Assembly: GCA_963725425.1 (NCBI GenBank)
Contig: CAVRYJ010000044.1
Span: forward strand, 132,263-196,262
Length of the DNA stretch: 64,000 nucleotides
Origin: an uncultured Clostridiaceae bacterium
Lineage (GTDB): Bacteria; Bacillota; Clostridia; Clostridiales; Clostridiaceae
Direction: 5' to 3'
Part shown: piece by piece, positions 1,861 through 29,268 of the stretch
Position numbering within the stretch: the first letter of the stretch is position 1
How the letters are laid out: each line of letters opens with the position of its first letter
Program-made: the position numbers and the translations under genes
Notes under the pieces: generated by a model
Seen by the model: only the letters and a program-made list of their open reading frames with translations
Database searches by the model: none
Told to the model about the DNA's origin: nothing

Positions 1861-1979
1861 GGTATTTGGACTCTGGCAACTGCTTCTCTAGCGGTTCTTT
1901 TTTCTGTTCATCCCAAAAGTGTTAACACCACCCCAGTGACGTTGGCACCGAAGCCAGCTTTTTCTTTATATAATCTATG

Positions 1980-2290
1980 ATTAATTAGTTAATCCATACT
2001 AGTATTTGAAGTTAGTATTATATACTAGTACTTAGTATTAATACTAAGTGTCGGTACTAAGGGTCAACTATAATAGTTAATACGGCATCTGAAAGACAAT
2101 GGAGAATGGAGAATGGACAACTATCCATTGACAATGAACAACTGCCAATGGATAGTTGTTCATTAAAGATAGTTTTCCTCACTATCCTAGTAAAATTAAA
2201 AACCTTAATTCTAGATTTTTTGTAGCTTTGCTACAAAAAATCAACCTTAACTGCCCATTGTGAATTTTCAATTTTCAATTGTCTATTGTC
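1980..2290 (+). repeat. ~300-bp dispersed repeat, copy 1 (TAGTAT-rich block plus heptamer-armed hairpin element)
   Basis: Collinear with 13745-14035 and 17570-17880: ATTAGTTAAT.CATACTAGTATT ... GGCAT.TG.AAGACAATGGA ... ATCAACC.TAACT. Confidence 0.85.
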
Positions 2291-2370
2291 CAAAACTTAC
2301 ATAAAATAATATATAATATGATATACTTATATTACTATCTTAACCCTAACACGCGCTTAAAGGAAAAAAT

Positions 2371-6371: not shown

Positions 6372-6433
6372 ATTATTAATAATGCCTAAAAACAGACTGC
6401 CTTACGGCAGTCTATCTATATAGAGGTGAATAT

Positions 6434-8881
6434 ATGAAATACGCAGAAATAATAAGTCAGATGACCTTAGAAGAAAAGGCATCCTTAATGTCAGGGAAAG
6501 ATTTTTGGCAAACTCAGGACATACAGCGTCTTGAAATTAACAATATATTTCTTGCTGATGGGCCCCATGGTATCAGAAAACAGAAAGCAGCCGCAGATAA
6601 TTTGGGCTTAAACGCTAGTATTCCTGCAACTTGTTTCCCTACAGCTGCAACTATTGCAAACAGCTGGAACAGAGAATTAGGTGAAAAAATCGGAATATGT
6701 CTCGGGGAAGAAGCAGTATCACAGAAAGTCAACGTACTTCTTGGTCCTGGTAGCAATATGAAAAGAAATCCCTTATGCGGAAGAAATTTTGAATACTTTA
6801 GTGAAGATCCTTATCTAGCTGGAAAAATGGCAGCCAGCTACATCAAAGGTATCCAATCTATTGGTATCTCCGCCTGCGTAAAACATTTCTGCGTGAATAA
6901 TCAAGAAGAGAGAAGAATGGCTATTGATACCATTGTAGATGAAAGAACTTTGAGGGAAATCTATCTCACTGCATTTGAGATTGCAGTTAAAGAAGGTGCT
7001 ACAAAAACAATTATGTCCTCCTACAACATGCTTAACGGCACCTACACTAATGAAAATCTGCATTTGATGTGTGATATCCTGCGTAGTGAATGGAACTTTC
7101 ATGGCGTTGTAGTAACAGATTGGGGCGGTAGCAACAATCGCATACTAGGGCTAGTGGCAGGTAATGAACTGGAGATGCCTACCACATGCAGAGAGACAAA
7201 TGTAGATATTGTAGATGCTGTTACCAAGGGAGAAATTAAAGAAGATGTACTGGACCAATGTGTAGATAGACTTTTGGAACTGATTTTTACTACAGAAGAA
7301 GTGTATAAGAAACCCCGTAAGAAATTTGACCAAGACAAACACCAAAAGATTGCCCAGCTAGCGGCTGAGGAATCTATTGTGCTACTTAAGAATGAGGGGA
7401 ACATCCTTCCGTTAAAGCCTGGAACAAAAGTTGCAGTGATTGGTGATTTCGCAAAAAAACCTAGATATCAGGGCGCTGGGTCTTCCATAGTGAATCCAAC
7501 AAGACTTGATAATACACTAGACTGTTTGAAGGATGCAAATATTGTCAGCGTGGGTTATGCACCCGGCTTTCATCGGTTTGGAAAGAAAAGTAACAAACTT
7601 GTAAAAGAAGCTTCCTCCCTTGCAGAGAAAGCAGATGTAATACTCTTATATATTGGTCTGGATGAAGCTACTGAGGTAGAAGGCCTGGACAGGCAAGACA
7701 TGAAAGTTCCTCAAAACCAGATTGACCTGTTAGAAGCTGTGAGTAAAGTAAATCCCAATATCATTGTTGTTCTTTGTTGTGGTTCAGCTGTGGAGATGCC
7801 ATGGATTAGCAATATAAAGGGACTATTGCACCCATATTTAAGTGGTCAGGCAGGCGCAATGGCTATTCTTAGAGTTATTTGCGGAGATGTAAACCCTTCA
7901 GGTAAACTAGCTGAATCCTACCCAATACGTTATGAGGATGTCCCTTCCTTCAGCAACTTTCCAGGTAAGGAAGTCAGTGTTGAATACAGGGAAGGATTGT
8001 ATATTGGCTACCGTTATTATGATACTGCCAATGTAAAAGTGCGTTTTCCCTTTGGCTATGGCCTCAGTTATACTACCTTTGAATATACAGATTTAAATGT
8101 GGAAAGTGATAAAGTCACATTTTCACTAAAAAATACCGGAAATGCTGCTGGTGCGGAAGTCGTACAGTTATATATTGGAAAGTCCTCTCATATGATTTTT
8201 AGGCCTAAGAAGGAACTAAAAGGATTTAAAAAGATATTTCTCCAGCCAGGAGAAACACAAAGAGTTACCATTGCTTTCGATGATAAGTCCTTCCGTTATT
8301 ATAATGTAGTAACAGATTCCTGGGAAGAAGAGAGTGGAGAGTATAAAATTGCCATTGGATCTTCCAGCATGGACATTAAGCTACGCGGTGTGATTATGAG
8401 GGTTGGAACCATAGCAACCGCACCTTATGATAATGTAGCGCTGCCATCCTATTTTTCTGGTAAAGCAGCCCGTGTTGATGTGAAGGAGTTTGAAACATTA
8501 CTGGGCAAAAAAGTCCCGGAAGCTAAATGGGACAGAAGCAAACCTCTTGGATACAACGATACTATTGCACAGTGCCAGTACGCAAAGGGAGCATTTGCAA
8601 GATTTGCATTTCATCTAATTAGTTTTTCATATTGGTTTTTGAAAAAAATAGGGAAACGAAGCAATGCTAATATTATCATGATGTCTATATATCATATGCC
8701 ATTTCGTGGAATTGCCAGAATGACAGGTGGGGCTGTGAATATGCCAATGCTTGATGGAATACTCATCATAGTAAATGGTCATTTCTTCAAAGGCTTGAAT
8801 CATTTGTTAAAGGAAAGAAGTAAGATGGGTAAGGTGCGCAAAAGTGAAAGAATAATAGAAAAAGTGACAAAGGAGATGTAG
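6434..8881 (+). CDS. GH3 beta-glucosidase
   Basis: ADGPHGIRK, GRNFEYFSEDP, KHFCVNNQE, VVTDWGG (nucleophile Asp), FPFGYGLSYT, Fn3-like ELKGFKKI. Confidence 0.95.
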   Translation: MKYAEIISQMTLEEKASLMSGKDFWQTQDIQRLEINNIFLADGPHGIRKQKAAADNLGLNASIPATCFPTAATIANSWNRELGEKIGICLGEEAVSQKVNVLLGPGSNMKRNPLCGRNFEYFSEDPYLAGKMAASYIKGIQSIGISACVKHFCVNNQEERRMAIDTIVDERTLREIYLTAFEIAVKEGATKTIMSSYNMLNGTYTNENLHLMCDILRSEWNFHGVVVTDWGGSNNRILGLVAGNELEMPTTCRETNVDIVDAVTKGEIKEDVLDQCVDRLLELIFTTEEVYKKPRKKFDQDKHQKIAQLAAEESIVLLKNEGNILPLKPGTKVAVIGDFAKKPRYQGAGSSIVNPTRLDNTLDCLKDANIVSVGYAPGFHRFGKKSNKLVKEASSLAEKADVILLYIGLDEATEVEGLDRQDMKVPQNQIDLLEAVSKVNPNIIVVLCCGSAVEMPWISNIKGLLHPYLSGQAGAMAILRVICGDVNPSGKLAESYPIRYEDVPSFSNFPGKEVSVEYREGLYIGYRYYDTANVKVRFPFGYGLSYTTFEYTDLNVESDKVTFSLKNTGNAAGAEVVQLYIGKSSHMIFRPKKELKGFKKIFLQPGETQRVTIAFDDKSFRYYNVVTDSWEEESGEYKIAIGSSSMDIKLRGVIMRVGTIATAPYDNVALPSYFSGKAARVDVKEFETLLGKKVPEAKWDRSKPLGYNDTIAQCQYAKGAFARFAFHLISFSYWFLKKIGKRSNANIIMMSIYHMPFRGIARMTGGAVNMPMLDGILIIVNGHFFKGLNHLLKERSKMGKVRKSERIIEKVTKEM

Positions 8882-9522: not shown

Positions 9523-9682
9523 AGATAGTGTAAGTAGTAGATTATTATTTTGCATTTGAATTAAAGGTTTAACACTTGATGATATAGTTATTTTGCCTTA
9601 TAATGACTTTTAATGGCATTAATATATTTTACGTTGGTAATCGTTTATTGTACTGCCGAAAATACAAAATGAGGAATAGAAT

Positions 9683-12106
9683 ATGAAATATAAAGATTTA
9701 ATTAAAAAAATGACTTTAGAAGAAAAAGCATCTTTAATGTCAGGAAAAGATTTTTGGCAAACTCAGGATATAGAACGTCTTGGAGTCAATAGTATGTTTC
9801 TTGCCGATGGTCCCCATGGAATTAGAAAACAAGCGGTAGCCGCAGATCAGTTTGGACTTAATGTTGGTATTCCCGCAACTTGTTTTCCCACAGCCGCAAC
9901 TGTAGCTAACAGTTGGAATGAAGAACTGGGAGAAAAAATAGGAGAGTATCTTGGTGAAGAAGCTATTTCGCAAAAAGTTAATGTGCTGCTAGGACCTGGT
10001 GTTAATATGAAGAGAAATCCTTTATGTGGAACAAACTTTGAGTATTTCAGTGAAGATCCATATCTTGCCGGTAAAATGGTTGCTGGATATATTAGAGGAA
10101 TTCAGTCACATGGAATTTCAGCTTGTGTGAAACATTTTTGTGTAAATAATCAGGAAGAGAGACGTATGGCTATTGATACCATAGTGGATGAAAGAACTCT
10201 TAGAGAAATCTATCTCACTGCATTTGAGATTGCAGTTAAAGAAGGTAGGACTAAGGCCATAATGTCTTCATATAATATGCTTAATGGTACATATACTAAT
10301 GAAAATATGCATTTGATGAATACAATCCTGCGTGGTGAATGGAATTATAAAGGCTGCGTTATTACAGATTGGGGCGGAAGCAATGATCGTATTGCAGGAC
10401 TTATTGCTGGTAATGAGCTTGAAATGCCAACAACATCAGGTGAGACAGATGAAGAGATTATAAGCGCCATTAAAAGTGGAAAAATCAAAGAAGAAGTATT
10501 AGACCAATGTGTAGACAGATTACTTGAACTTATTTTTACAACAGAAGATGCATATAAGAAACCTCATACAGAGTTTGATGTGGAAAAGCATCATAGAGTA
10601 GCACAAAAAGTTGCAGAAGAGTCAATAGTGCTGCTTAAAAATGAAGAGAATATATTACCACTTAAATATGGTAAAAAAGTTGCAGTTATAGGCGAGTTTG
10701 CAGAAGAAGCACGATATCAGGGTGCGGGATCATCTATTGTAAACCCAACAATCTTGGATCATACATTATATTGTTTTGAGGAATCAGGAATTATCAGCAT
10801 TGGATATGAACCTGGTTTTGAACGGTATGGTAAAAAAAGTAAGAAAAAAGTAGATAAGGCATGTGCACTTGCAAAAGAAGCAGATGTCATTCTTTTATAT
10901 ATTGGTCTGGATGAAGTAAGCGAAGCTGAAGGACTTGATAGACAAAGTATGAGCATTCCAGAGAACCAAATAGATTTATTAAATGCTCTGCACAAAGTTA
11001 ATCCCAATATTATAGCCATTCTTTCTTGTGGCTCTGCAGTAGAAATGCCATGGATAAATAAGGTAAAAGCATTGTTGCATGGGTATTTAGGGGGACAGGC
11101 AGGAGCAAGGGCCATACTTAGGGTTTTGTCAGGTGATGTGAACCCTTCAGGAAAATTGGCAGAGACATACCCAATTCATTATGAGGATACACCTTCCTTT
11201 CACAATTTTCCTGGTAAAGAAGTTAGCGTAGAATATAGGGAAGGTATTTATATCGGCTATCGCTATTATGATACAGCAAATATAGATGTTCTTTTTCCAT
11301 TTGGATATGGCCTTAGTTATACAGCTTTTGAATATTCAGATATGAAAGTTAATAAGTATGAAGCAACATTTAAGTTAACAAATTCCGGAAAAGTTGCTGG
11401 AATGGAAATCGCACAGATGTACGTAGGCTGTAATTCCCATGATATTTTCAGACCCAAAAAGGAGTTAAAAGGATTTGTTAAGATATTTATAAATGCAGGT
11501 GATACAAAGACTGTAACAATATATTTTGATGACAAGACATTTCGGTATTTTAACGTTAAAACAAATAAATGGGAAATACAAGAAGCAGAATATACAATTA
11601 TGATTGCTGCATCAAGTGCAGACATAAGATTAGAAGATAATGTATTTATAAAAGGCACAGATGCACCACTGCCCTATGACAAGAACATACTTCCATCCTA
11701 TTATTCAGGTAAAGTAAACAACGTCAGCACAGAAGAATTCGAAAAATTAATTGGGTTTAATGTGCCTATCTCTAAATGGGATAGAACAAAACCACTTGGT
11801 TACAATGATACTATTGCACAGTGTCAGTATGCAAAGGGCGGATTTGCAAGATTTGTTTTTCATATGATTGTTTTTGCATATTGGTTTTTAAGAAAAATAG
11901 GAAAGAGAAGCGCTGCTAATATTATAATGATGTCTATATATCATATGCCATTTCGTGGAATCGCCAGAATGACAGGTGGTGCAGTGAATATGCCAATGCT
12001 TAATGGCATTTTGATGATAGTAAATGGCCATTTCTTTAAAGGCTTGAATCATTTGTTAAAGGAAAGACGTAAGATGATGAGAGAGAGAAAAGCGAAAAAA
12101 CAATAG
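9683..12106 (+). CDS. GH3 beta-glucosidase, close paralog of 6434-8881
   Basis: Collinear with the preceding GH3 over its whole length; same motifs (ITDWGG). Confidence 0.95.
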   Translation: MKYKDLIKKMTLEEKASLMSGKDFWQTQDIERLGVNSMFLADGPHGIRKQAVAADQFGLNVGIPATCFPTAATVANSWNEELGEKIGEYLGEEAISQKVNVLLGPGVNMKRNPLCGTNFEYFSEDPYLAGKMVAGYIRGIQSHGISACVKHFCVNNQEERRMAIDTIVDERTLREIYLTAFEIAVKEGRTKAIMSSYNMLNGTYTNENMHLMNTILRGEWNYKGCVITDWGGSNDRIAGLIAGNELEMPTTSGETDEEIISAIKSGKIKEEVLDQCVDRLLELIFTTEDAYKKPHTEFDVEKHHRVAQKVAEESIVLLKNEENILPLKYGKKVAVIGEFAEEARYQGAGSSIVNPTILDHTLYCFEESGIISIGYEPGFERYGKKSKKKVDKACALAKEADVILLYIGLDEVSEAEGLDRQSMSIPENQIDLLNALHKVNPNIIAILSCGSAVEMPWINKVKALLHGYLGGQAGARAILRVLSGDVNPSGKLAETYPIHYEDTPSFHNFPGKEVSVEYREGIYIGYRYYDTANIDVLFPFGYGLSYTAFEYSDMKVNKYEATFKLTNSGKVAGMEIAQMYVGCNSHDIFRPKKELKGFVKIFINAGDTKTVTIYFDDKTFRYFNVKTNKWEIQEAEYTIMIAASSADIRLEDNVFIKGTDAPLPYDKNILPSYYSGKVNNVSTEEFEKLIGFNVPISKWDRTKPLGYNDTIAQCQYAKGGFARFVFHMIVFAYWFLRKIGKRSAANIIMMSIYHMPFRGIARMTGGAVNMPMLNGILMIVNGHFFKGLNHLLKERRKMMRERKAKKQ

Positions 12107-13659: not shown

Positions 13660-13732
13660 CAATGTTAAATTTAACACAATTAACCAAAAACCTCAATAAA
13701 CTAAAAATTAGGGGGTATAAACTTTTAGTTTC
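13660..13732 (-). promoter_or_regulatory. Second copy of the GH3-operon operator/promoter, upstream of the esterase gene
   Basis: Minus strand reads ATGAAACTAAAAGTTTATACCCCCTAATTTTTAGTTTATT...GTGTTAAATTTAACATTG, matching 3299-3372. Confidence 0.6.
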
Positions 13733-13744
13733 ATAATGCATTCT

Positions 13745-14035
13745 ATGATTAATTAGTTAATTCATACTAGTATTTTATGTTGGTGTAATATACTAGTATT
13801 TAGTATTAGTACTAAGGGTCGGTAGTAAGGGTCAAATCTATAGTTAGGAAGGCATATGAAAGACAATGGACAATGGACAATGAGCAATTGAAAGCCGGCA
13901 AGGGGTAGTTGATGGTTAAGTTTTTTTATTTTCTCCATGTATTGAGAAAATAAAAAAACTTAATTTTAGATTTTTTGAATCCAAGCGTAAAAAAATCAAC
14001 CTTAACTGTCCATTGTTCATTGTCAATTGTCCACT
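13745..14035 (+). repeat. ~300-bp dispersed repeat, copy 2
   Basis: Collinear with 1980-2290. Confidence 0.85.
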
Positions 14036-14100
14036 TGTTTTAAATTGTACCCATTATGGCTATTTCTTAGCTGGCACTCAAAGGAGTAAAAAGCAAAATT

Positions 14101-17459: not shown

Positions 17460-17880
17460 ATGGATATGAATGCTGATATTAAAAAAGCAGAAGAAAAAAT
17501 AGAATATCTACTTTGTCATTAACAACAGAGAAGCAGTTGCCAGTGAAACCAGCTTTTCCTTTATAATCTATAATTAGTTAATTCATACTAGTATTTGAAG
17601 TCAGTGTTATATATTAGTACTTAGAATCAATACTAAGTACTAATACTAAGTATCAGTATTTAGTATTGGTTCTAATAGTTAATACGGCATCTGTAAGACA
17701 ATGGAGAATGGACAATTGAAAATTGACAATTGACAATGAACAACTGGCAATGGATATTTGATAAGTAAAGGTAGTTCTTCTCCCTACTAGTAAAATTACA
17801 AAACTTCCCTTTAGATTTTTTGAAGCTTTGCTACAAAAAATCAACCATAACTATCCATTTTCAATTCTCCACTGTCCACT
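17460..17880 (+). repeat. Deleted remnant of the rpn 3' region plus ~300-bp dispersed repeat, copy 3
   Basis: Pieces match ~1437-1490, ~1764-1788 and ~1950-2290 in order, with internal deletions. Confidence 0.85.
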
Positions 17881-18007
17881 TTTTTGAATAATATTTATAA
17901 GTTTATTAACAACAACTCCTGTTGTTGTTTTAGATTGTTTTATAATCTTTTGTTTTAATCGTTTTAGGCGTGCTCCAAACCCTTGGTATGACTAGGTCTA
18001 AAACTTT

Positions 18008-18154
18008 AAAGGCAACCTATTTATGGTCAAAGGCAACCTGTTTATGGTATATTGGACTTTAAAGGCAACTCATATATGGTCAAAGGCAACTTATTTATGG
18101 TGAAAGGCAACTTGTTTATGGTATATTAATCTCTAAAGGCAACCTGTTTATGGT
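18008..18154 (+). repeat. Iteron array of origin 1: six 20-bp copies of AAAGGCAACYTRTTTATGGT
   Basis: Starts at 18008, 18029, 18061, 18082, 18103, 18135 (spacing 21/32/21/21/32); AT-rich tract upstream, rep gene downstream. Confidence 0.92.
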
Positions 18155-18227
18155 ATAGTAAATATTTATCTGAAAACATAGCTAGGCTAATGGTTTATGA
18201 ATATATAGCTTTGCTTTTAAAAAGTTA

Positions 18228-18257
18228 TTGACAACGTCTAAGCAAAAAAGTTATAGT
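18228..18257 (+). promoter_or_regulatory. Candidate rep1 promoter
   Basis: TTGACA-N18-TATAGT, RBS AGGGTG just downstream. Confidence 0.55.
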
Positions 18258-18277
18258 TACTACTAGGGTGATAGTAA

Positions 18278-19330
18278 ATGATAACGGATATGACAAATAC
18301 AAATGACAATTGGATATATCAAAGTAATAAATTGATCGAGGCATCTTATTCATTTACGGTATTAGAACAAAAATTAATTAGACTTTTGGCAAGTATGATA
18401 AACAAAGATGATGATGATTTTAAAGAATATAAATTTAAAGCAGTTGATTTAAGCAAGCTGTTTAAAATTAATCAAAAAAACATTTATATGGAATTAGATA
18501 AAATAACAGATAAATTAATGACACGATATATAAAAATAAAACATAATGACAGTCAAAAATTTAAAAAAAGACATTTGATAAAAATAGCAGATTTTGAAAA
18601 TGGAATATTAACAATGAAGATCGATGAGGACATGAAAGAATTTTATTTAAAATTAAATTGGTATACAAAATATCAACTTAAAAATATAATGCAATTTAAA
18701 AGCACTTATTCCTTTAGGTTATATGAATTGTTTAAGCAGTATGAGAATATAGGTCATAGATTAATGGGTATTGAAGATTTACGGCATATACTAGAGATTG
18801 ATAAGAACCAATATGCTAAGTATTCAAATTTAAAACAAAAAGTTATTAGCGTTGGTATTAACGAAATAAATATAAATACTGATTTACATATAGATTACGA
18901 AGAAATGAAAGAAGTTAGAAAAGTAACAACTATTAAATTTTACATAAGACCTACTACTAAAGCAAAAAATGAAATGATAACAGCAAAAGTTGTCCAAGCT
19001 CCAAATAAATCAGAACCATATATTGACAACGTTAAATTGATTATAAAAAATGTTATTGATGATGAAATTAGCGATAAAACAGCTAATGATATTTATCAAT
19101 GTGCCACTAAAAATAGAGTATATGGAAACATGCCCTTAGAATTAATAAATGAAGTTGCAGAGTATTCTAAAACTCAAGATATTAAAAACGGTTTTGTAGG
19201 ATGGGCAAAATCTATTATTTCAACCTATGAAAGACCTATAAAAACTCATAAAACATCTAATTTCAATGATTACCCTCAAAGAAGTTATGATTACGATGAA
19301 CTGGAGAAAAAGCTTTTGGGGATAGAATAA
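18278..19330 (+). CDS. Plasmid replication initiator, Rep_3 (RepB-like) family, copy 1
   Basis: QSNKLIEASYSFTVLEQKLI, KSTYSFRLYELFKQY, YSNLKQKVI...INEIN winged-helix motifs. Confidence 0.93.
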   Translation: MITDMTNTNDNWIYQSNKLIEASYSFTVLEQKLIRLLASMINKDDDDFKEYKFKAVDLSKLFKINQKNIYMELDKITDKLMTRYIKIKHNDSQKFKKRHLIKIADFENGILTMKIDEDMKEFYLKLNWYTKYQLKNIMQFKSTYSFRLYELFKQYENIGHRLMGIEDLRHILEIDKNQYAKYSNLKQKVISVGINEININTDLHIDYEEMKEVRKVTTIKFYIRPTTKAKNEMITAKVVQAPNKSEPYIDNVKLIIKNVIDDEISDKTANDIYQCATKNRVYGNMPLELINEVAEYSKTQDIKNGFVGWAKSIISTYERPIKTHKTSNFNDYPQRSYDYDELEKKLLGIE

Positions 19331-19336
19331 ACAATA

Positions 19337-19521
19337 AGGACAATTCACAATGGACAATGGAGAGTGGACAATGGAGAGTGGAAAGTTAAGGTTGATTTTA
19401 TGTAGCAAAGCTACATAAAATCTGAAATTAATTATTAGTTTTTCTGAGCAAAGCGAAGAAAACATCATTAACTGTCCATTGTCAATTTTCCATTGTCAAT
19501 TTTTATTTTTCCATTGTCCAC
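19337..19521. repeat. Heptamer-armed hairpin element between convergent rep1 and rep2
   Basis: (CAATGGA/GAGTGGA)n - GTAGCAAAGCTAC - CTGAGCAAAGCGAAG - (TCCATTG/TCAATTT)n. Confidence 0.85.
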
Positions 19522-19525
19522 TGCC

Positions 19526-20559
19526 TTACTTAATCCCTAAAAGCTTTTTCTCCAAAGCCTCATAATCATATTCCCTTTGCTCATAATCAGTGAATGCATT
19601 TTTAGCTGTATTACCTTTTGGTTCTTGAAAAACACCTGGTCTAACCATACTTATCATAGCCCCAACAATACTATCTAATTCCTTGTTTTTAAAGTGATTG
19701 TACACCTTTTTTATAAGTTCCATATTACCATTAGAGCTATCATATATGTTCTTGGCTTCAACTGATGTTATATCCTTTTCAGCCATGATTTTTTTAACTT
19801 TCTTTATGTACTTACCTTCATTGGGATCTTCCTTAATTACTTCTGACTCAATATGTAATGAACTTTTATCTTCTTCTTCAATAACATTCTTATTTGGCTG
19901 TATGTAAAACTTAATAGCTACTATTCTGCGGCTTTTTCTAACTTCAGTGAAATCAAAACGAATATCAGTTTTAGACTGTAATTCCTTTTGAGCTTGGGCT
20001 AATACTCTTAACTTAAAATCATAATATCTTGGATATTCCTTATCTCCAATATTAAGCATATGTTTCAAGTCCTTTAGTAGTATAGTTTCATATCCTTGGG
20101 CTTTAAACTCAAAACTTTTTAATATTTCATAAAGTCTTATAGCATATTTGCTTTTAAGACTTAAAACATTTACAAGTTTATAACTTACAAATAATTCATT
20201 TAATTTAAGCAGATATGGTTTTAGTTTGGGATCAAAACATAATTCCACTGTACCTGAACCAAGTTCATATTCAGCAGATGAAAGCCATGAAAGTTGTAAT
20301 ATTTTTTTATTATTTCTTATCTCAAATCCTTTTTTCGTTAACTTTCTTGTTATTTTAGGTATCTCTATATATTTTTTTTGTCTTTAATTCCCAGTAGCTC
20401 TATAAACTCTTTTATACTAAACCTGTAAGATTTAAATTCCTCATCCTCTGGTTGTACTAAAGATGCCAGAGTAATTACTATTCTTTGCTCTTCAAGTGAT
20501 AAATCATAAGAGGCTGTAATTAGAGCATTTGATTTAGTAACTAAATTGTTTTCGTCCAT
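19526..20559 (-). CDS. Rep_3 initiator, copy 2 (frameshift in an A8 run at ~20370)
   Basis: VTKSNALITASYDLSLEEQRIV, then in a shifted frame LSWLSSAEY, KSKYAIRLYEILKS, FKLRVLAQAQKEL. Confidence 0.9.
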
Positions 20560-20614
20560 ATGTCTTCACCCCAAAAAACATTATAAACTTTATATAACTT
20601 CAACGTCAACCTAT

Positions 20615-20805
20615 TGTCGTTATTACGGTAGGAATCTGTCGTCATTACGGTAGGAATCTGTCGCTCTTAGGGTAGGAATCTGTCGTCATTACGGTAGGAA
20701 TCTGTCGTTCTTATGGTAGGGATCTGTCGTTGTTACGGTAGGCAAGTGTCGTTGTCTCGGTAGCCATCTGTCGTTGTTACGGTAGGAATGTGTCGTTGTT
20801 AGGTC
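20615..20805. repeat. Iteron array of origin 2: eight full and one partial tandem 22-bp copies of TGTCGTYRTTACGGTAGGAATC
   Basis: Units start at 20615, 20637, 20659, 20681, 20703, 20725, 20747, 20769, 20791; no spacers; upstream of rep2. Confidence 0.92.
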
Positions 20806-21297
20806 TCGTAGACTAGCCTATAGCCGCCTTTTCAGTGGGGTCCAAAACATAAAACAAGTTAAACATATAAAACAAATAAAACAACAACTATGGTTGATGT
20901 TTTATTTGTTTTACTTTTAGAACATTTTCAGGTTGTTGTTGTATAAACAAAGTCTATAATTATGATATATATTAAATTAGATTTTCAATAAAAAATTAAA
21001 GTTCTTTTATAAGTTTACGTAAATAATAGAATAAATGGTATTATAAGTGTCCATTTAGAAAAGGAAGTTTTTATATGAATAAGTTTATATATATATACAT
21101 TTTAATAATTGTGTGTACTATTTTCTGGGCAATGGTATTGTATAAGTTTGTTATAGTGAGAAACATACTGCTTATTATTGCCATGGTATTATTGCTCAAT
21201 TTGATAATACAGTGGTGTTTAAAAGTCATAAGAAAAAATAATAAATAAGCTTTAATTAGGCACAAAGAAGAAAACTGCTTATTATTTTTTTGTTTTT

Positions 21298-22350
21298 CTA
21301 ATATCCCAGCAACTGTTTCTCAAGAGCGGCATAATCATATTCTCTTTGATCATAGTCTGTTAGCTTGTTCACCTTTTGCGTTTTTATAGGTTTCTCATAG
21401 TTTTTAACTGTGGTTTTCAGCCAAGCTATTAAACTTTTGTTAATGTTTTGAGTTTTGGAGTACTCTGCCACTTCTCTTATTAGTTCTAGTGGCTTTTTTC
21501 CACCATCATTGTGTTTGCCTGCACATATATAAATTTCATTTGCAGCTTTATTTGTGATGCTGACGTTTAATACATTTTTAATAATTGCTTTAACCTGAGA
21601 TACATTTTCATCTTGTTTTTTATTTTTTGGAAAATTGGAAACTGTAGTGGAATCTTTTTGTATTAGATTATTAGACTTTATAGTAAATTTAACCCACATT
21701 ACTTTACTATTCTTTTTTATTTCCTCATAGTCAAAACTAATGTCACTGCTATTATTTATCTCATCATAAGCTGATTTTAAAACGTTACGCTTAAATTCAT
21801 AATAAACATCATAGGTTTTAGGACATTCAAGTTTACTTCGTAAATCATCCAGCTTATCAAGTCTCCAGCCTGTATCCTCATATAATTTTAGATAGTAATA
21901 AAGCCGTTTACTGTATGTATTATGAAAATTGATAGGATATTTTATATTGTAAAAACAGGCTCTTTTAGTAGTTAAAAGCAATTGCTTCAATTCATAATCT
22001 AAACTAATCTTAATTTTGCTTTCCCCATCTAAATAGGAAATACTTGAAAACCAAGCAAAATATATTCTATTTTGTTTTTTTTCACTAATCTTTTGAGTTA
22101 TAGAAAAACCTTTTCCTTCAAATGTTTCTACAGCCTTTTTCAAATCCCTGTATATATTGCTTTTGTCTTTGATATTATATAATTTACCATACTTGGATAC
22201 TTCTATTTCATATTGATATTTGTCATCATCTTCAATAGACGCAAATACCATATCCATAATGTCGTTTTGTCTTTTAGTAAGGCTATATCTTGCTTCTATT
22301 ATGGCTTCCGGCCGTTTACAAATTAATTCTCCACCTTTTTTAATCTCCAT
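21298..22350 (-). CDS. Rep_3 initiator, copy 3
   Basis: RPEAIIEARYSLTKRQNDIM, FAWFSSISY, NTYSKRLYYYLK, FKRNVLKSAYDEIN. Confidence 0.9.
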   Translation of the reverse strand: MEIKKGGELICKRPEAIIEARYSLTKRQNDIMDMVFASIEDDDKYQYEIEVSKYGKLYNIKDKSNIYRDLKKAVETFEGKGFSITQKISEKKQNRIYFAWFSSISYLDGESKIKISLDYELKQLLLTTKRACFYNIKYPINFHNTYSKRLYYYLKLYEDTGWRLDKLDDLRSKLECPKTYDVYYEFKRNVLKSAYDEINNSSDISFDYEEIKKNSKVMWVKFTIKSNNLIQKDSTTVSNFPKNKKQDENVSQVKAIIKNVLNVSITNKAANEIYICAGKHNDGGKKPLELIREVAEYSKTQNINKSLIAWLKTTVKNYEKPIKTQKVNKLTDYDQREYDYAALEKQLLGY

Positions 22351-22499
22351 ATTAACTGATTTAATTGTTAAAAAATCAGTTTTTCACCCACCCTTATTTT
22401 AAATTATAATTATGCCGTTGAGAAAAAAACTCCACCTGAAACAAAGAACTCTGTTTATGAGTATATGGTGACGTAATACGTAAATTAAATATTCTTATT

Positions 22500-22590
22500 T
22501 ACGCAGACATTCCTTACGCAAGTCACCGACATTCTCTACGTACCTTCACCGACATAGCTTACGCAAATTACCGACATTATTTACGTAGCA
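22500..22590. repeat. Iteron array of origin 3: four 22-23-bp copies (CCGACATTCCTTACGCAA-like), orphan copy near 22888
   Basis: GACAT cores at 22506, 22528, 22551, 22573; CCGACATTCCTTACGTAA again beyond the heptamer element. Confidence 0.8.
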
Positions 22591-22679
22591 AAACCATCTA
22601 ATCCATTGATATAGCTTATCTGTAGAGATTCTACTATACTCTTACTATACGTTTTACTATAAAATACTATACTACAACT

Positions 22680-22880
22680 AGTGGAGAGTTGAGAATTGAG
22701 AGTGGAGAGTTAAAAGCAATGGACAGTTCACAATGGACAATTGACAATTGAGAGTTAAAAGCAATTTACAATTGTCAATTGACAATTGTAAATTGTCCTT
22801 TCTCCTTTAATCATTAGTTTTTCTGAGCAAAGCGAAGAAAAACTTCCTTAACTGTCCATTGTCCATTGTCAATTTTCAAC
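22680..22880. repeat. Heptamer-armed hairpin element
   Basis: GGAGAGT/GGACAAT/TGACAAT arrays, CTGAGCAAAGCGAAG core, TCCATTG arrays. Confidence 0.8.
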
Positions 22881-23124
22881 CATCTTCCCCGACATTCCTT
22901 ACGTAACTCCACCCACTATACATGTATGCTATTGTTTCAACTATTACCTGAAATTTTACTCATTTTATTCTATTTACCATAGGCTTACTTAAGAGTTATA
23001 ACGGATTAATGTAAATATGTCATAATTGGATTAAATATGTCACATTTATGGCATGTTTATTATTTCCATAAGATATAGTATAATTACATTAAAAAGTTCC
23101 AATCCATAACTAAGGGGGATTGCT

Positions 23125-24275
23125 ATGAAAAAGAAAGTGCTATCATTATTAACTGTTTCAATACTTTGTCCTTTACTCTTTGCTTCTTCAGTGACGTTTA
23201 ATGGACAAGTAACACACCACAATGTGAGTCAAGGACAAATGGTTAGTCAGGGGAGATTTAGGCCTAGAAAAGGCAATATGCAACGAACAGCATATGTACC
23301 TTCACAAATAAAAAATGCTTATGGAATAAGTAAACTTACGGCAACTGGGAAAAATGAAAAATTGCTATTGTTGTAGCCTATGGAAGTCCAACAATAAGCA
23401 CTGATTTAACTGCTTTTGATAACAAATATACTTTAAGTTCTGCAAATCTTCAAACTTTTTATCCTGAAGGCACAGTAACCGCTGACTTAGGCTGGGCAGA
23501 AGAAACTTCTCTCGACGTAGAATGGGCACACGCATTAGCCCCAGATGCTGCTATTGATCTAGTAGTTGCAAAATCTACATCTAACGATGATTTACTAGCT
23601 GCTGTAGATTACGCATCTAATTTAGGTGTACAAGTAGTCTCTATGAGCTGGGGAAATTCTGAATTTTCAGGTGAATTAAGTTTAGATTCGCATTTTATTC
23701 ATCAGGGTACTGTTTATGTAGCAGCCTCAGGTGATAATGGAGCTGGTGCTATATGGCCTGCAGCGTCTGCCAATGTTTTAGCTGTAGGAGGCACAACTCT
23801 TCCTTTGGATTCTAATGGAAATATTAAAGGAAGTGAAACTGCATGGTCCAGTTCTGGCGGCGGTATTAGTAGGTTTGAAACTGAACCAAGTTACCAAAAG
23901 ACTGCTAATATTAAATCAAATAATCATAGAGCAGTGCCAGATGTATCCTTTGATGCAGATCCCAGTACTGGGGTTATGGTAGATTATAATTTAACGTGGT
24001 ACGGAGTTGGTGGTACAAGTTTTTCAACTCCAGCCTGGGCAGCATTTGTTGCTTTAATTGACCAAGGACTCACAGTGCCCTTAACAAATACAACTTTACA
24101 AAGTGAAATGTATAGTTTGGCAAAACCTTCCACATATTCTTCGAACTTTAGGGATATTACTATCGGCAGCAATGGATGGTCACAAAAAGATATGGCTAAA
24201 ACAGGATACGATTTTGTAACAGGACTTGGGACTCCTTTGGAGAATAATTTGTTGAGTAGTTTAAGCACAAATTGA
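23125..24275 (+). CDS. Secreted S53 (sedolisin/kumamolisin-like) peptidase, frameshift in an A-run at ~23357
   Basis: Signal peptide; EETSLDVEWAHA (Glu/Asp), ASGDNG (oxyanion Asp), GGTSFSTP (Ser), GYDFVTGLGTP. Confidence 0.88.
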
Positions 24276-24437
24276 AAGAAAGTTGAGAGTGGAAAGTGGA
24301 GAGTGGAGAGTTAAGGAGGTTTTTCTGAGCTTCGCTCAGAAAAACTAATGATTGAATTTAAATCTTAGATTTTACATAGCTTTGCTACGTAAAATCAACC
24401 TTAATTTTCCACTCTCCACTCTCAATTATCAACTATC
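24275..24437. repeat. Heptamer-armed hairpin element between convergent peptidase and par operon
   Basis: GAGAGTG/GAAAGTG arrays, CTGAGCTTCGCTCAG, TAGCTTTGCTA, ATCAACCTTAA, TCCACTC arrays. Confidence 0.85.
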
Positions 24438-24440
24438 TTT

Positions 24441-24748
24441 TTAATCAGTAAATTCCAAATTATCTAAACACCACTTACACATGATATTCATTAATTCATT
24501 TCTTGAATAGCCACTTTTCTAGCAACTTTGTCAATTTCCTTTATAGTTTCATCTTCCATGTACACGTTAAAAGCTTTTTTATTGCTTTTATCATCCTTTT
24601 TCTTAGACAGTTTAAACTTGTCGTCTACTTTTACTCGTAGCCTTAGTATCAAGTTCATCGCCCTTGACTTTTTTTACTGTTATTAACAACAGTTTTATTG
24701 CTTGAAATTATGTTGCCTTTTAATACTATCCTTTAAATTATTATTCAT
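24441..24748 (-). CDS. Ribbon-helix-helix protein, probable centromere-binding partner of ParA (several indels in the 5' part)
   Basis: C-terminal frame reads KKAFNVYMEDETIKEIDKVARKSGYSRNELMNIMCKWCLDNLEFTD; directly downstream of parA; not in the ORF track. Confidence 0.7.
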
Positions 24749-24786
24749 TTTTTGCACCGCCTTATCATAATAAATTGTATTTTGTT

Positions 24787-25539
24787 CTATTTAATTCTGC
24801 TAATGATTTCGTAGTAAAGCTCTCTATAGGCTTTACTGTGAATTAAACTATAATCCTGTATTACCTTATGAAGAGCAGTGGCTTCTTTATACTTTACACT
24901 GTCATAAATTATAGTCTTTAACAAACTACCCTTTAACTCTTCCTCCACTACCTCATCAAATTGCTTATTAAATATAGTTCTTTTTTCAAATCTATTTCTT
25001 AAAATGCCTAATAACTCTAGATTATCATTTAAGTCACTATCTTTAATTTCATCGGTTATTTTCTTTACCATGTTTAAGCCTTGAAGAGCAGATACAGAAT
25101 TATCTATTATCTCCATATAATAATCACTTAATACTAAACTGTTTTGAACCGTAATACCCAAAAATGGACTATTGTCTATAAGTATAAAATCAAAATCATT
25201 GGCAAACTTAGCATATTTGTTTTTCAAAATACTCTCTCGGCTCATTTTATTATGTAGCTTGCTTTCAAGCATGGAGCTTTCTATAACATTTGGTATCATA
25301 TAAATATAATTATTGTATTGACTTATACAATCCTCAAAGGTAACTTTTGAGTTAGTATATAGATCATATAAAGTATATTCAGATTCTACATTTAAAATTT
25401 GCGTAACATTACTCTGACTATCATTGTCTATAATAAGTACTTTGTGTTTTTGAGCTGCAATAGCTCCAGCCAAATTTATTGTTGTTGTGGTTTTTCCAAC
25501 TCCACCTTTAACATTTAGTATAGTTATTATTTTACCCAT
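24787..25539 (-). CDS. parA: ParA/Soj family partition ATPase
   Basis: KGGVGKTTT deviant Walker A, LIIDNDSQSN, FILIDNSP. Confidence 0.93.
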   Translation of the reverse strand: MGKIITILNVKGGVGKTTTTINLAGAIAAQKHKVLIIDNDSQSNVTQILNVESEYTLYDLYTNSKVTFEDCISQYNNYIYMIPNVIESSMLESKLHNKMSRESILKNKYAKFANDFDFILIDNSPFLGITVQNSLVLSDYYMEIIDNSVSALQGLNMVKKITDEIKDSDLNDNLELLGILRNRFEKRTIFNKQFDEVVEEELKGSLLKTIIYDSVKYKEATALHKVIQDYSLIHSKAYRELYYEIISRIK

Positions 25540-25689
25540 ATTCTCACCTTACTTTTTATATAGAATTTTAAATTTATTGATTTAAGCATCTAAAATTAAC
25601 AGACCACAATACTCACTTGTTTTTTTTTATGATATTTTAATTGGCTACATTCATTGTATAATACGAAAGGTCAAATATCAACAGTAGTT

Positions 25690-26070
25690 AGCAAATAACA
25701 GTATAAATATTTAATGCTAGTATTTAATGTTTGTATAAAATATTAATATTATGTATAAATATTAACATAAATATTTAACATTAATATAAAATATCAATAT
25801 AAAATATTAATATTTTATATTGGAATTAAGTATCTATATTAGTATTGGTACTTAATAACAATATTCCACGTTAATGATTAATACTAATATTAAGGGTTAA
25901 CGTGTCATACTAATATTTAATATTAATACTTTATATTAATATATTTATATAATACTGAACACTGGCATCTAATATCAATACTAAATATAAATATTGTACA
26001 TTAGTATTATATGCTGGTATTTAGTATCATCATATAACGTTAGTATAATGTACTAGCCATGATGTGTTGT
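25690..26070. other. Very AT-rich tract of AATATT/TAGTAT/ATACTA motifs upstream of parA; candidate centromere (parS)
   Basis: Repeated AAATATT(T)AA, TATTAATATT, ATACTAATATT; position typical of type Ib par loci. Confidence 0.4.
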
Positions 26071-26682
26071 ATATTACTTATATGTAAAGTTTTAGATATT
26101 AATTAAATTTACTGTTAAATGCATCCTAGAAATATTTTTAACATAAATTATCCATTAATTTATATTAAAAAAATAGGAGCATATCTAAACTAGATATGCT
26201 CGAACAGAAAAGAATAAATCTAAAAATATAAAGAATACCACATCAGTTGGAAGCAATTATTACCGCATGTACTTACAAATGAGGTGATGAAAATGAAGAC
26301 AAATTTAAAGTTGCTTTTTGATTTTAAATATAAATAATGTGCAATATTTATATTTGATTAAAGTAGCAAAAAATATACAGAAATGTATTTTTTTCTGTTC
26401 TAGGATTATTATACCATACTTTCTGTTATAAAGTTAGTACCTTATTTATTTTATTTTTTTGGCATATAATGTTATTAACATTAATATAACTAAATTTAAA
26501 ATCTTTTTATAAAATTACTTACATAAGACTATAATATTACATAAATAAGAATAGTCAACATATTTATTCCTAGTTACATAAGTAAATTTGGTAATAGATC
26601 TTTTTAAAATAAGTAATACCAGCGGTTAAGGTGCTACTAAATAATTTAAAACAAAATATATTAAAAAATAATTATCCTTAAA

Positions 26683-27732
26683 TTATTTCCATCCTAATAA
26701 TTTTTTTTCTAAATCTTCATAGTCATATTCTCTTTGCTCATAATCCGTGAAGTCGTTTTTCTTTACATGGGGTTCTGGTTCATCAAAGGCTCCGGGTATC
26801 ACCATCTTTATCATGTAACCCACTACATTGTCAATATTATGCTCTAAAGCATAATTGTATACCCGTTTTATTTTGTCTAAATCACCTTCAGCACTATTTA
26901 ATATCTTTAGTGCCTCATAATTCGTTATTTGGTGCTTAGAAGCGATTTTAATTACCTGTAGTGTTTCACGTCTGGTATCATTATTTAAGCCCTCATTTAG
27001 GGTACTGTGGGCGTCAAAAGTTTCGTTTATGTGTTCTATCACTATGTTTTTTCCATTTTTCCTTATATTAAATTTAACACCAGATACTTTTCTAACATTT
27101 TTAAGTTCCATATAATCAACATTTAAATCCGTGTTTTCATTAATTTCTTTTATTGCAACGCTAATAACTTTTTGTTTTAAGTTGGCGTATTTAACGTACT
27201 GATTTTTTTTAATATCTAGTATAACCCTTAGCTCCTCAACGCTTATAGACCTTGCACCTATGGTCTCATATTGTTTAAACAGTTCATAGAGCCTGAAAGA
27301 ATAGGTACTCTTAAACTGCATAATATTTTTTAGCTGATATTTTGAATACCAATCTAAACTTAAATAGAAGGGTTTTAAATCTCTATGTATTTTTAGCTTT
27401 AAAACACCATTGTTATACTTTGCCGTGTCTACCCAATGATATTTTTCCCAGGCTCCTGTAGTCTTGTCTTTTATTTTTATAATTCTTTGCATCACAAGAT
27501 CCGTTATTTTATCAATATCTCTATAAAATCTGCTGTCACTAGTATTTAGTATTTTAATTAACTCTTTTGTTTTGAATTCATATTCCTTGAAATCATCATC
27601 GTCTTTTTTAATCATACTAGCTATTAGCCTAATTAATTTTTGCTCTGTCACTGTTAATGTATAACTAGATTCTATAAGCTTATTGCTTTGATATATCCAA
27701 TTCTCATTTATATTTGTAATCTCTGTAGACAA
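26683..27732 (-). CDS. Rep_3 initiator, copy 4 (TTG start)
   Basis: QSNKLIESSYTLTVTEQKLI, KSTYSFRLYELFKQY; RBS GGGGGTG; promoter TTGATA-N17-TATAAT upstream. Confidence 0.93.
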   Translation of the reverse strand: MSTEITNINENWIYQSNKLIESSYTLTVTEQKLIRLIASMIKKDDDDFKEYEFKTKELIKILNTSDSRFYRDIDKITDLVMQRIIKIKDKTTGAWEKYHWVDTAKYNNGVLKLKIHRDLKPFYLSLDWYSKYQLKNIMQFKSTYSFRLYELFKQYETIGARSISVEELRVILDIKKNQYVKYANLKQKVISVAIKEINENTDLNVDYMELKNVRKVSGVKFNIRKNGKNIVIEHINETFDAHSTLNEGLNNDTRRETLQVIKIASKHQITNYEALKILNSAEGDLDKIKRVYNYALEHNIDNVVGYMIKMVIPGAFDEPEPHVKKNDFTDYEQREYDYEDLEKKLLGWK

Positions 27733-27809
27733 GTAGCACCACCCCCATAAAAATTATTATAACTATATTTTTACCAGTTATCAATAACCAAAAAAATATA
27801 GTTATAGTT

Positions 27810-28044
27810 CACTATCAAAAGGTTATAGTTAAAAAATAGCCTACACTATCAAAAGGTTATAGTTAACTATCTTTAAGTTATAGTTAGCTATCAAAAGGTT
27901 ATAATTCACTATCTTTGAGGTATAGTTCACTATCTTTCAGTTATCTTTTACTATCTTTAAGTTATAGTTAAAAGTCCTTTTCACTATCTTTCAGTTATCT
28001 TTCACTATCATTAGGTTATCTTTCACTATCATTGGGTTATAGTT
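27810..28044. repeat. Iteron array of origin 4: ten 21-bp copies of CACTATCWWWRRGTTATMKTT
   Basis: Starts at 27810, 27844, 27865, 27886, 27907, 27928, 27949, 27982, 28003, 28024. Confidence 0.92.
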
Positions 28045-28249
28045 AGTGATGCTAAACCCAGTTATATCAAGGCTTTAGAGGGTGACTAAAACTCTTAAAT
28101 ATATATAAAACAGCAGAAACAAAAAATCTTATAAAACAACAACAAGATCTTAACCATACTTTTAGTTATACTCAATAGGGGTGTGGTTGGATGAATTTTA
28201 CATTGATGTTATAAAAAGGTAAAAAGTATATACACATTTAAAACGAAAG

Positions 28250-28662
28250 CAGTGGACAATGGACAATTGACAATAAAAAGAAGTGGAGAATGGAGAGTTG
28301 AGAATTGAAAGGTGAGGATGTTTTTCTTCGCTTTGCTCAGAAAAACTAACAATTAAATTTTAAATCTTAAATATTAGATTTTACGTAGCTTGCTACATAA
28401 AATCAACCATAACTCTCAACTTTCAACTTTCAATTTTCAATTCGCTACTCAAAAGAAGTTGAGAATTGAAAATGGAGAGTTGAGAGTGGAGGGTGTTTTT
28501 CTTCGCTTTGCTTAGAAAAACTAACAATTAAGTTTTAAATCTTAAATCTTAGATTTTACGTAGCTTTGCTACATAAAATCAACCTTAATTTTCAACTCTC
28601 CATTCTCCACTCTCCACTATCCTGTGCATTACTAATTGTCCATTGTGCATTGTCCATTGTCA
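28250..28662. repeat. Tandem heptamer-armed hairpin elements (two cores)
   Basis: Two copies of CTTCGCTTTGCTYAGAAAAACTAACAATTAA...GTAGCTT(T)GCTAC...ATCAACC.TAA with heptamer arms. Confidence 0.85.
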
Positions 28663-28859
28663 ATTGTTCTATATATGAAGGACTATAAATCAACCCAAGA
28701 ATTAAAAACAAAAAGAAAGAAACCACAACCCATAAACTGTAGTTTCTTGTATTTGAAAAAGAAAAAACCATTCTCAAAAATTAAAATTAAGCTAAGAACT
28801 TCTATATAAAAAAGAAAATAAGAACTAATGCTAATACTTTTCTACAAAAACAAAATATA

Positions 28860-29239: not shown

Positions 29240-29268
29240 TTGACAATGATACAATGTTTTGTTAAAAT
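29240..29268 (+). promoter_or_regulatory. Candidate sigmaA promoter of the S-layer-like gene
   Basis: TTGACA-N17-TAAAAT with an extended TG motif. Confidence 0.55.

Follow-up and report, generated by a model that had tools for sequence, protein, structure and literature searches.

Four Rep_3 replication modules of separate descent beside one partition locus in the probable maintenance region of a large clostridial replicon

The window analysed here is a 64,000-nucleotide stretch from an uncultured Clostridiaceae bacterium (assembly GCA_963725425.1, contig CAVRYJ010000044.1, hereafter C44; window = G000:C44:132263-196262). The region studied within it (17.9-28.2 kb) holds four genes encoding Rep_3 plasmid initiators, repA to repD, each with its own array of iterons, together with one partition (par) locus. 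It is probably the maintenance region of a large and probably extrachromosomal replicon, in which recombination joined four separately descended Rep_3 replicons to a single type Ib-like par locus. C44 measured 272,868 bp in an assembly of 5.77 Mb (46 contigs, ~31% G+C), and in a whole-genome scan its cluster contained the sole Rep_3 genes of the whole assembly. By its protein matches, the organism falls among Clostridium species. A first-pass annotation of this DNA had described four complete iteron replicons. The four Rep_3 genes, each with its own array, stood up to analysis, but repB was frameshifted in two assemblies, which leaves three intact genes.

Descent of the four Rep_3 modules

All four Rep proteins matched both Rep_3 domains (Rep3_N and Rep3_C; Pfam PF01051 and PF21205) above the curated cut-offs, and their closest solved structures were RepE of F and RepA of pPS10 (the latter for the first winged-helix domain, WH1). 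Pairwise identity among the four ranged from 30 to 50%. In a maximum-likelihood tree of the four Reps and 41 homologues, four separate placements were needed, and every Rep had a supported sister from another genome. RepC was sister to a Rep of Clostridium akagii (support 100/99) and RepB to a Rep from a Bacillota metagenome-assembled genome (MAG; 99/94). RepD fell in a four-member clade (100/100) with Reps of three further Clostridium genomes (two being MAGs), and RepA was placed inside a clade formed by pCM008-C, pCF009-a and C. algoriphilum.

Orthologous Reps in other genomes also retained the same lineage-specific iteron type. Three other genomes had the A-type iteron AAAGGCAACCTATTTATGGT, likewise ordered 2+3, with a near-identical iteron upstream of the orthologous rep genes in pCM008-C, pCF009-a and a MAG contig, and the D-lineage orthologues carried TATAACTAAAAGATAGTG-type iterons. 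Because the four Reps belong to separate supported clades and have relatives elsewhere with matching iterons, the cluster was assembled from different replicons, and these data indicate recombination or cointegration as its origin, not local duplication. The multireplicon cassette proposed by the first-pass annotation is supported in its core by the four separate Rep clades, by orthologues that keep their iteron type and by three strong promoter matches (see next section).

Judging from how their similarity is distributed, the Rep proteins are themselves domain mosaics. RepA and RepD shared 63% in their winged-helix (WH) domains and only 25% in the C-domain, whereas RepA and RepC shared 61% in the C-domain (178 nt at 71% DNA identity) and 30% in the WH domains; RepD and RepB had the C-domain and the tail in common. 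A C-terminal tail, DYxQRxYDYxxLEKKLLG, was common to all four. In many Clostridia, the same tail ended chromosomal proteins with a DnaB_2 domain (DnaD/DnaB-type), and it also ended phage replisome organisers (Phage_rep_org_N and Phg_2220_C). Since the tail is common to Reps, DnaD/DnaB-type proteins and phage replisome organisers, a shared docking motif is suggested, and the tail is a candidate contact for one host helicase-loading partner.

Origin architecture, partition locus and repeat elements

Each array lay 56-156 bp upstream of the start codon of its own rep gene (Table 1), and allowing as many as 5 mismatches gave no cross-match among the four arrays. Genome-wide, each iteron type was limited to the cluster, save for isolated 3-4-mismatch matches resembling chance. 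The whole 5.8-Mb genome held only 23 tandem arrays of the iteron class, and shuffling the region 100 times produced none; the four arrays are genuine and specific. The repeat counts given at first pass for arrays B (8.5 x 22), C (4 x 22-23) and D (10 x 21) were reproduced, with an additional orphan copy for C and 10-11 copies for D, while array A, reported as 6 x 20, proved to have a unit of 21 bp. An inserted repeat element of ~200 bp stood between array C and the orphan C-type copy. The spacings of 21-22 and 32-34 bp, close to whole helical turns, are a generic property of iterons.

On the iteron-distal side, the tracts noted earlier as AAACAAC-rich at three arrays corresponded to TTGTTTTA repeats at oriA, oriB and oriD. 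Exact copies occurred three times at oriA (17925-17957) and three times at oriB (20850-20884), and oriD held one exact copy plus degenerate ones (~28104-28139). These repeats were always iteron-distal and in one orientation relative to rep, and a motif scan counted 21 copies in the window for 11.8 +/- 3.0 expected. Among the four top sigma-70-type promoter matches in 12.5 kb (11/12 positions), three lay between the last iteron and repA, repB or repD, and the fourth (29240-29268) was outside the cluster; the same scan gave no strong match upstream of repC. No DnaA box (TTATCCACA, up to 1 mismatch) was found between 17.2 and 29.7 kb. The modules differ in this from the Gram-negative Rep_3 prototypes, of which DnaA boxes are typical, although such boxes are not a universal requirement of the family.

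Each module follows the classical order, in which an A/T-rich repeat tract on the distal side, a candidate for the unwinding element, precedes 4-11 direct iterons of 21-23 bp, a promoter and the rep gene. Each Rep monomer would bind its own iterons only and melt the adjacent A/T tract; without DnaA boxes, it would bring in the helicase-loading machinery of the host, probably by way of its C-terminal tail. Up to three origins (A, C and D) could fire independently, repB/oriB would now be inactive or expressed only through a change in tract length, and the lone par system would segregate the entire molecule. The multi-replicon state would most likely be a by-product of plasmid fusion or module exchange, tolerated, as we propose, since the modules do not cross-react in their iteron specificity. 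Redundancy and a broader range of hosts are possible benefits, and the first-pass suggestion that the set of origins broadens host range or evades incompatibility is speculative.

Table 1. Features of the rep/par cluster and repeat elements in the window (window coordinates).
Feature	Coordinates	Strand	Description
repA	18278..19330	+	Intact, 350 aa; Pfam Rep3_N 1e-32, Rep3_C 8e-15
repB	19526..20559	-	Rep_3 gene split by a single frameshift at poly-A ~20366-20373
repC	21298..22350	-	Intact, 350 aa; Pfam Rep3_N and Rep3_C
repD	26683..27732	-	Intact, 349 aa; Pfam Rep3_N and Rep3_C
Rep C-terminal tails	19290-19330, 19526-19570, 21298-21340, 26683-26725		Ends of the four Reps
Array A	18008..18155	+	6 x 21 bp AAAGGCAACCTGTTTATGGTA, 2+3+1 order, 11-bp spacers
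Array B	20615..20801	-	8 full copies and a partial one (8.5), 22 bp, contiguous, TGTCGTTATTACGGTAGGAATC on + strand; Tandem Repeats Finder score 234
Array C	22506..22590	-	4 x 22-23 bp, GACATTCCTTACGCAAATCACC on + strand
Orphan C-type iteron	22891..22912	-	4 mismatches to consensus; split from array C by E3
Array D	27808..28042	-	10-11 x 21 bp, TTCACTATCTTTAAGTTATAG on + strand
oriA distal A/T-rich tract	17900..17968	+	AACAACAAC/GTTGTTGTT hairpin, then three TTGTTTTA; candidate DNA-unwinding element
oriB distal A/T-rich tract	20846..20945	-	Three TTGTTTTA in rep orientation and an inverted copy
oriC distal tract	22632-22674	-	TACTATAC x4 in place of TTGTTTTA
oriD distal A-rich tract	28100..28150	-	ATAAAACAG, GAAACAAAA, ATAAAACAACAACAAG
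repA promoter-like	18228-18257	+	TTGACA-18-TATAGT
repB promoter-like	20609-20580	-	TTGACG-18-TATAAT
repD promoter-like	27784-27756	-	TTGATA-17-TATAAT
parA	24787..25539	-	Walker-type ATPase, 250 aa; Pfam AAA_31 1e-38, CbiA
Candidate parB (ribbon-helix-helix)	24440..24790	-	Downstream of parA; frame broken at least once, A run
Candidate centromere/operator	25690..26040	.	~350-bp A/T-rich field with TATTAATA/TAGTATT words and internal inverted repeats, upstream of parA
E1	17690..17880	.	Left cluster border, degenerate core
E2	19334..19523	.	Between repA and repB 3' ends
E3	22680..22880	.	Compound element, in or beside oriC
E4	24275..24435	.	Between the S8 peptidase gene and parB
E5/E6	28246..28667	.	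Two tandem elements inside an outer inverted TGGACAA pair, right cluster border
Further copies of the heptamer-palindrome element	2100-2297, 13862-14052

The cluster contained a single par locus, in agreement with the first reading, and its parA was the only plasmid-type ParA on the 273-kb contig. The ParA resembled the NCBIfam models ParA_partition and PrgP below their equivalog cut-offs, and the candidate ParB matched RHH_1, a ribbon-helix-helix (RHH) family, at 22.1 bits (cut-off 20.5; E 1.5e-4) only if one frameshift was read through. The locus can be assigned from these matches to a type Ib-like ParA/RHH-ParB system, with the frame of ParB as a caveat. It resembled ParF/ParG of TP228 and delta/omega of pSM19035 in its small Walker ParA, its candidate very small RHH protein and the adjoining repeat field, but differed from them in the interrupted ParB frame, in repeat words unlike the known ones (TATTAATA/TAGTATT) and in a centromere that is only a candidate. 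The exact ParA, ParB, S8 peptidase and small open reading frame (ORF) products had no match in other assemblies.

Module boundaries carried elements of ~170-190 bp, in which inverted heptamer arrays (TGGACAA/TGGAGAG/TTGAGAG) surround a ~95-bp core with two hairpins; no such element lay between the repB-oriB and repC modules. As single-stranded DNA, E4 folded at -43.8 kcal/mol (z = -10.2). Genome-wide, there were ~40 copies, and all 27 strong copies were intergenic. C44 held 12 copies, an 8-fold enrichment, with 6-7 of them in the 11-kb cluster, which represents 4% of the contig. An Rfam search of the element returned no family and only sub-threshold hairpin look-alikes, and the element was not found in the 31 kb of pCM008-C or the 18 kb of pCF009-a examined. 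There was no recombinase beside the elements, and no transposase or insertion sequence (IS) at the module junctions, and the ORF list alone showed no further replication module near the C44 copies at 214-227 kb. Given this distribution, the element is treated as a dispersed intergenic repeat that colonised the region, with a possible role in insulating the modules or in promoting rearrangements among them.

The heptamer arrays were considered as the centromere, by comparison with the omega heptads of pSM19035, and rejected, as the same repeat family occurred on chromosomal contigs and arms of this type were present in 39 of 149 genomes of the family. Another repeat was composite, with three copies of ~340 bp in the window (1961-2297, 13729-14052 and 17550-17897), each consisting of a ~110-nt TACTAGTATT-rich leader followed by the heptamer element. 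Leader-like words also composed the field upstream of parA (25690-26040), and matches to the leader were limited to C44 and C5, the latter a contig that is possibly part of the same plasmid or of a second one. The palindrome ATACTAGTAT had 15 of its 25 genomic copies on C44 and C5. The composite-repeat leaders and the palindromes are candidate dispersed centromere sites.

Other genes in or near the cluster included an ORF (21075-21248, + strand) in the interval from oriB to the 3' end of repC, whose very hydrophobic 57-aa product had no family match, and a gene for an S8/sedolisin-like secreted peptidase (23125-24275, + strand) with oriC on one side and the par locus on the other. Left of the cluster, two tandem paralogous genes of GH3 beta-glucosidase type (6432-8785 and 9681-12034, 77-83% DNA identity) were preceded by another GH3 gene (3475-6371) that appeared split or domain-permuted. 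Elsewhere in the genome, the only gene for a four-helix-bundle protein of the 23S intervening sequence type (C45:233326-233990) was seemingly interrupted by a ~160-bp insert, and the arrays that follow it consist of another heptamer (CTAAAGT).

State of the modules and competing explanations

Several observations weigh against a maintenance region made of working modules on a plasmid, and the state of repB is among them. Its N-terminus (64 codons, 20559-20368, - strand) and its other ~280 codons, which end at 19526, lie in different frames, so that WH1 is divided by the frameshift and the ORF at 19526-20248 (- strand) alone is without most of this domain. The shift point is the run GACAAAAAAAATAT (GAC-A8-TAT, with the A run at ~20366-20373), which has eight A in the window and seven in a contig (L110) of the independent Logan assembly of public run ERR11630400; as the gene is in frame only at A6 or A9, it is out of frame in both assemblies. 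The Logan gene calls were likewise split (67 + 240 aa), and no intact near-identical RepB was found in a collection of 5.8 billion proteins. Orthologues have an interrupted ACAAAAACAAAATAT at this site and no long A run, which makes the poly-A run specific to this lineage. A plain assembly error was considered and is now less likely, given that the second assembly is also out of frame and that no intact near-identical RepB was found; repB is probably either genuinely inactivated or located on a length-variable tract. The A8 form contains an A-AAA-AAT site that would permit a -1 shift to the correct frame, and the run is possibly a slippage-prone tract (A8/A7 between assemblies).

The frame of parB was also broken in the assembly, and in the S8 peptidase gene a single frameshift, at an A5 run near 23360, interrupted the reading frame. 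Overall, the cluster counted at least three frame breaks in ~6.4 kb, compared with two in 28.3 kb of chromosomal conserved genes (27 genes aligned to a complete same-genus genome, both breaks at A/T runs, ~0.07/kb; p ~0.05), a marginal excess that fits partial decay. In addition, oriC had four iterons only, no TTGTTTTA tract and a repeat element before its orphan iteron, and may be impaired. At the level of the contig, the genes left of the cluster did not point away from it, and the ends of C44 did not overlap; because the contig is not closed, we infer its plasmid status.

Concerning the accuracy of the sequence, indel errors were present in the assembly, as dnaA (C41, ~15.5-16.4 kb) was frameshifted at an A6 run. 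Four Logan contigs from the same run matched the window at 17481-19454 (L111), 19433-20656 (L110), 21287-22454 (L108) and 24982-28346 (L109). Over these 7.7 kb there were no substitutions and only two homopolymer-length differences, the repB run (A8 vs A7) and T6 vs T7 at 26367. L111, which covers the joins from E1 through oriA and repA to E2, and L108, which covers repC, were 100% identical to the window, while L109 links parA, repD, oriD and E5. The end of L111 (19454) and the start of L110 (19433) overlap in window order.

C44 is probably a megaplasmid with the rep cluster as its maintenance region, as indicated by its gene content. No tRNA genes were detected in its 273 kb, whereas the other large contigs carried them, and dnaA and dnaN were located on C41 with a chromosomal Soj-like gene (soj) beside dnaA (tblastn of the genome). 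Rightward from the right edge of the cluster, genes were nearly all on the + strand and GC skew was positive for more than 100 kb, a pattern that fits a plasmid. If C44 were chromosomal, the cluster would be a hotspot of integrated plasmids with silenced origins, which would suit an unclosed contig with a GC content close to that of the chromosome, genes in the same direction either side of the cluster and a repeat-element family shared with chromosomal contigs. This is clearly unlikely in view of the missing tRNA genes, the position of dnaA, dnaN and soj, the par locus of C44 itself, the 8-fold enrichment of the repeat elements and the concentration of the ATACTAGTAT palindrome on C44 and C5. 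It is highly improbable that the cluster is an assembly artefact in which small Rep_3 plasmids were chained through their shared ~170-bp elements. Every module junction does coincide with a repeated element, the Logan contigs stop at repeats and the assembly carries indel errors, dnaA included; yet the element copies are too divergent (63-88% identity) to collapse, Logan contigs run from unique sequence into the elements from both sides in window order (L111/L110 and L109), no element separates repB-oriB from the repC module, and the cluster lies mid-way in C44 with unique flanks on both sides.

Another possibility is that only one module drives replication (repD/oriD beside parAB, or repA/oriA, being most plausible) and that the others are decaying relics of past cointegrations kept by linkage. 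The frameshift of repB in two assemblies, the short and interrupted oriC, the excess of frame breaks and the mobile-looking repeat elements inserted throughout would all agree with it. We nevertheless regard it as doubtful. None of repA, repC and repD is truncated, and all three keep the conserved WH1/WH2 domains and the tail; the arrays have a regular structure, and repA, repB and repD, though not repC, still have a near-consensus promoter match in front of them. These Rep lineages also occur together on other Clostridium plasmids, which speaks for their long-term retention. It is very unlikely that the region is a maintained cassette array, with modules of the plasmid types circulating among related clostridia captured between elements and kept for switching or for the exclusion of rival plasmids by iteron-based incompatibility, the repB poly-A run acting as an on/off switch. 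A functional collection, in which the extra Rep/iteron sets form an incompatibility barrier to incoming plasmids or are exchangeable cassettes bounded by heptamer elements, is the least probable explanation of all: the iteron types match plasmids circulating in related Clostridium species and the bracketing element is strongly over-represented in the cluster (6-7 of the 12 copies on C44), but no recombinase adjoins the elements, and both in this genome and across the family they are ordinary repeats of intergenic DNA. The fusion of separately descended Rep_3 replicons around one par locus stays the probable explanation.

Relation to known systems and significance

A Rep query of PLSDB matched 3,254 records at 3,544 places, so that most records had a single match; among the 25 rows listed, those with 3-5 places all belonged to the C. 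estertheticum/tagluense group. Plasmids of the C. estertheticum/tagluense/algoriphilum group likewise carried the nearest Rep homologues. Plasmid pCM008-C (C. tagluense) carried four intact Rep_3 genes and pCF009-a (C. estertheticum) three, in dispersed positions. Related psychrotolerant Clostridium plasmids had 2-4 Rep_3 genes, usually dispersed, and GTDB same-genus relatives had zero or one. Across 35 comparison loci with flanks of up to 10 kb, the maximum was two Rep_3 genes, seen in four of the loci at distances of 2.7-12 kb; two C. algoriphilum contigs carried Rep_3 pairs 2.7-4.7 kb apart, and one 62.7-kb MAG contig carried four Rep_3 genes. The Rep lineages of the cluster recurred in pCM008-C, pCF009-a and C. 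algoriphilum at 59-61% full-length identity (68-75% for the WH domains), together with lineage-A iterons nearly identical to array A, but the rep genes of these plasmids and contigs were mostly 12-50 kb apart, with the closest pair at 2.7 kb. A megablast of the whole 10 kb against PLSDB gave one match only (544 bp at 76%), with no close relative of the full cluster there.

The layout resembles that of Rep_3 theta replicons (RepE/F oriS, RepA/pPS10, pi/R6K and, among Gram-positives, the lactococcal pCI305/pUCL22 type) in its WH1+WH2 initiators, its 21-23-bp direct iterons upstream of rep, its distal A/T tract and its promoter beside the last iteron. Compared with RepE, the Reps here are ~100 aa longer, with an extra C-terminal domain and the conserved tail. 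The lactococcal type is described with ~3.5 iterons of 22 bp, a layout that array C shares. The presence of modules of different ancestry on one molecule is shared with multireplicon cointegrates such as IncF plasmids (FIA/FIB/FII), multi-Rep_3 Acinetobacter plasmids and fusion plasmids of S. aureus; here, in contrast, four modules of the same family occupy 10 kb with one shared par, and a heptamer-palindrome element, not an IS or transposase, lies at the junctions.

More than 30% of non-redundant PLSDB plasmids are multireplicon, with replicon pairs either close together or at opposite poles (10.64898/2026.05.05.722934), and several replication modules are commoner on larger plasmids (PMC8628078). 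The multi-rep plasmids of A. baumannii all belong to the Rep_3 type (PMC9927589), and Acinetobacter Rep_3 plasmids contain short accessory or backbone modules each bounded by a recurring short site, pdif (PMC13141974). The boundaries seen here are ~170-bp heptamer-array palindromes, unlike the 28-bp XerC/D sites of pdif modules. The first-pass annotation had called the density of replicons unusual; as a claim of novelty this does not hold, since multi-Rep_3 plasmids are the rule in the C. estertheticum/tagluense/algoriphilum group and clustered replicons are documented. The cluster is of a kind already known, the multireplicon plasmid, and its four modules in 10 kb stand at the dense end of a habit of the lineage. 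As multireplicon plasmids are well documented, it adds an example and opens no new question.

If the three intact modules all work, 10 kb from a single source would provide three compact Gram-positive theta replicons that are mutually compatible, plus a small par locus, all of value for building clostridial shuttle vectors. The cluster would also be a natural test case for iteron replicons that coexist on one molecule without cross-talk. Finally, the shared C-terminal tail points to one helicase-loading step that plasmid initiators, phage replisome organisers and DnaD/DnaB-type proteins may all engage in Clostridia.

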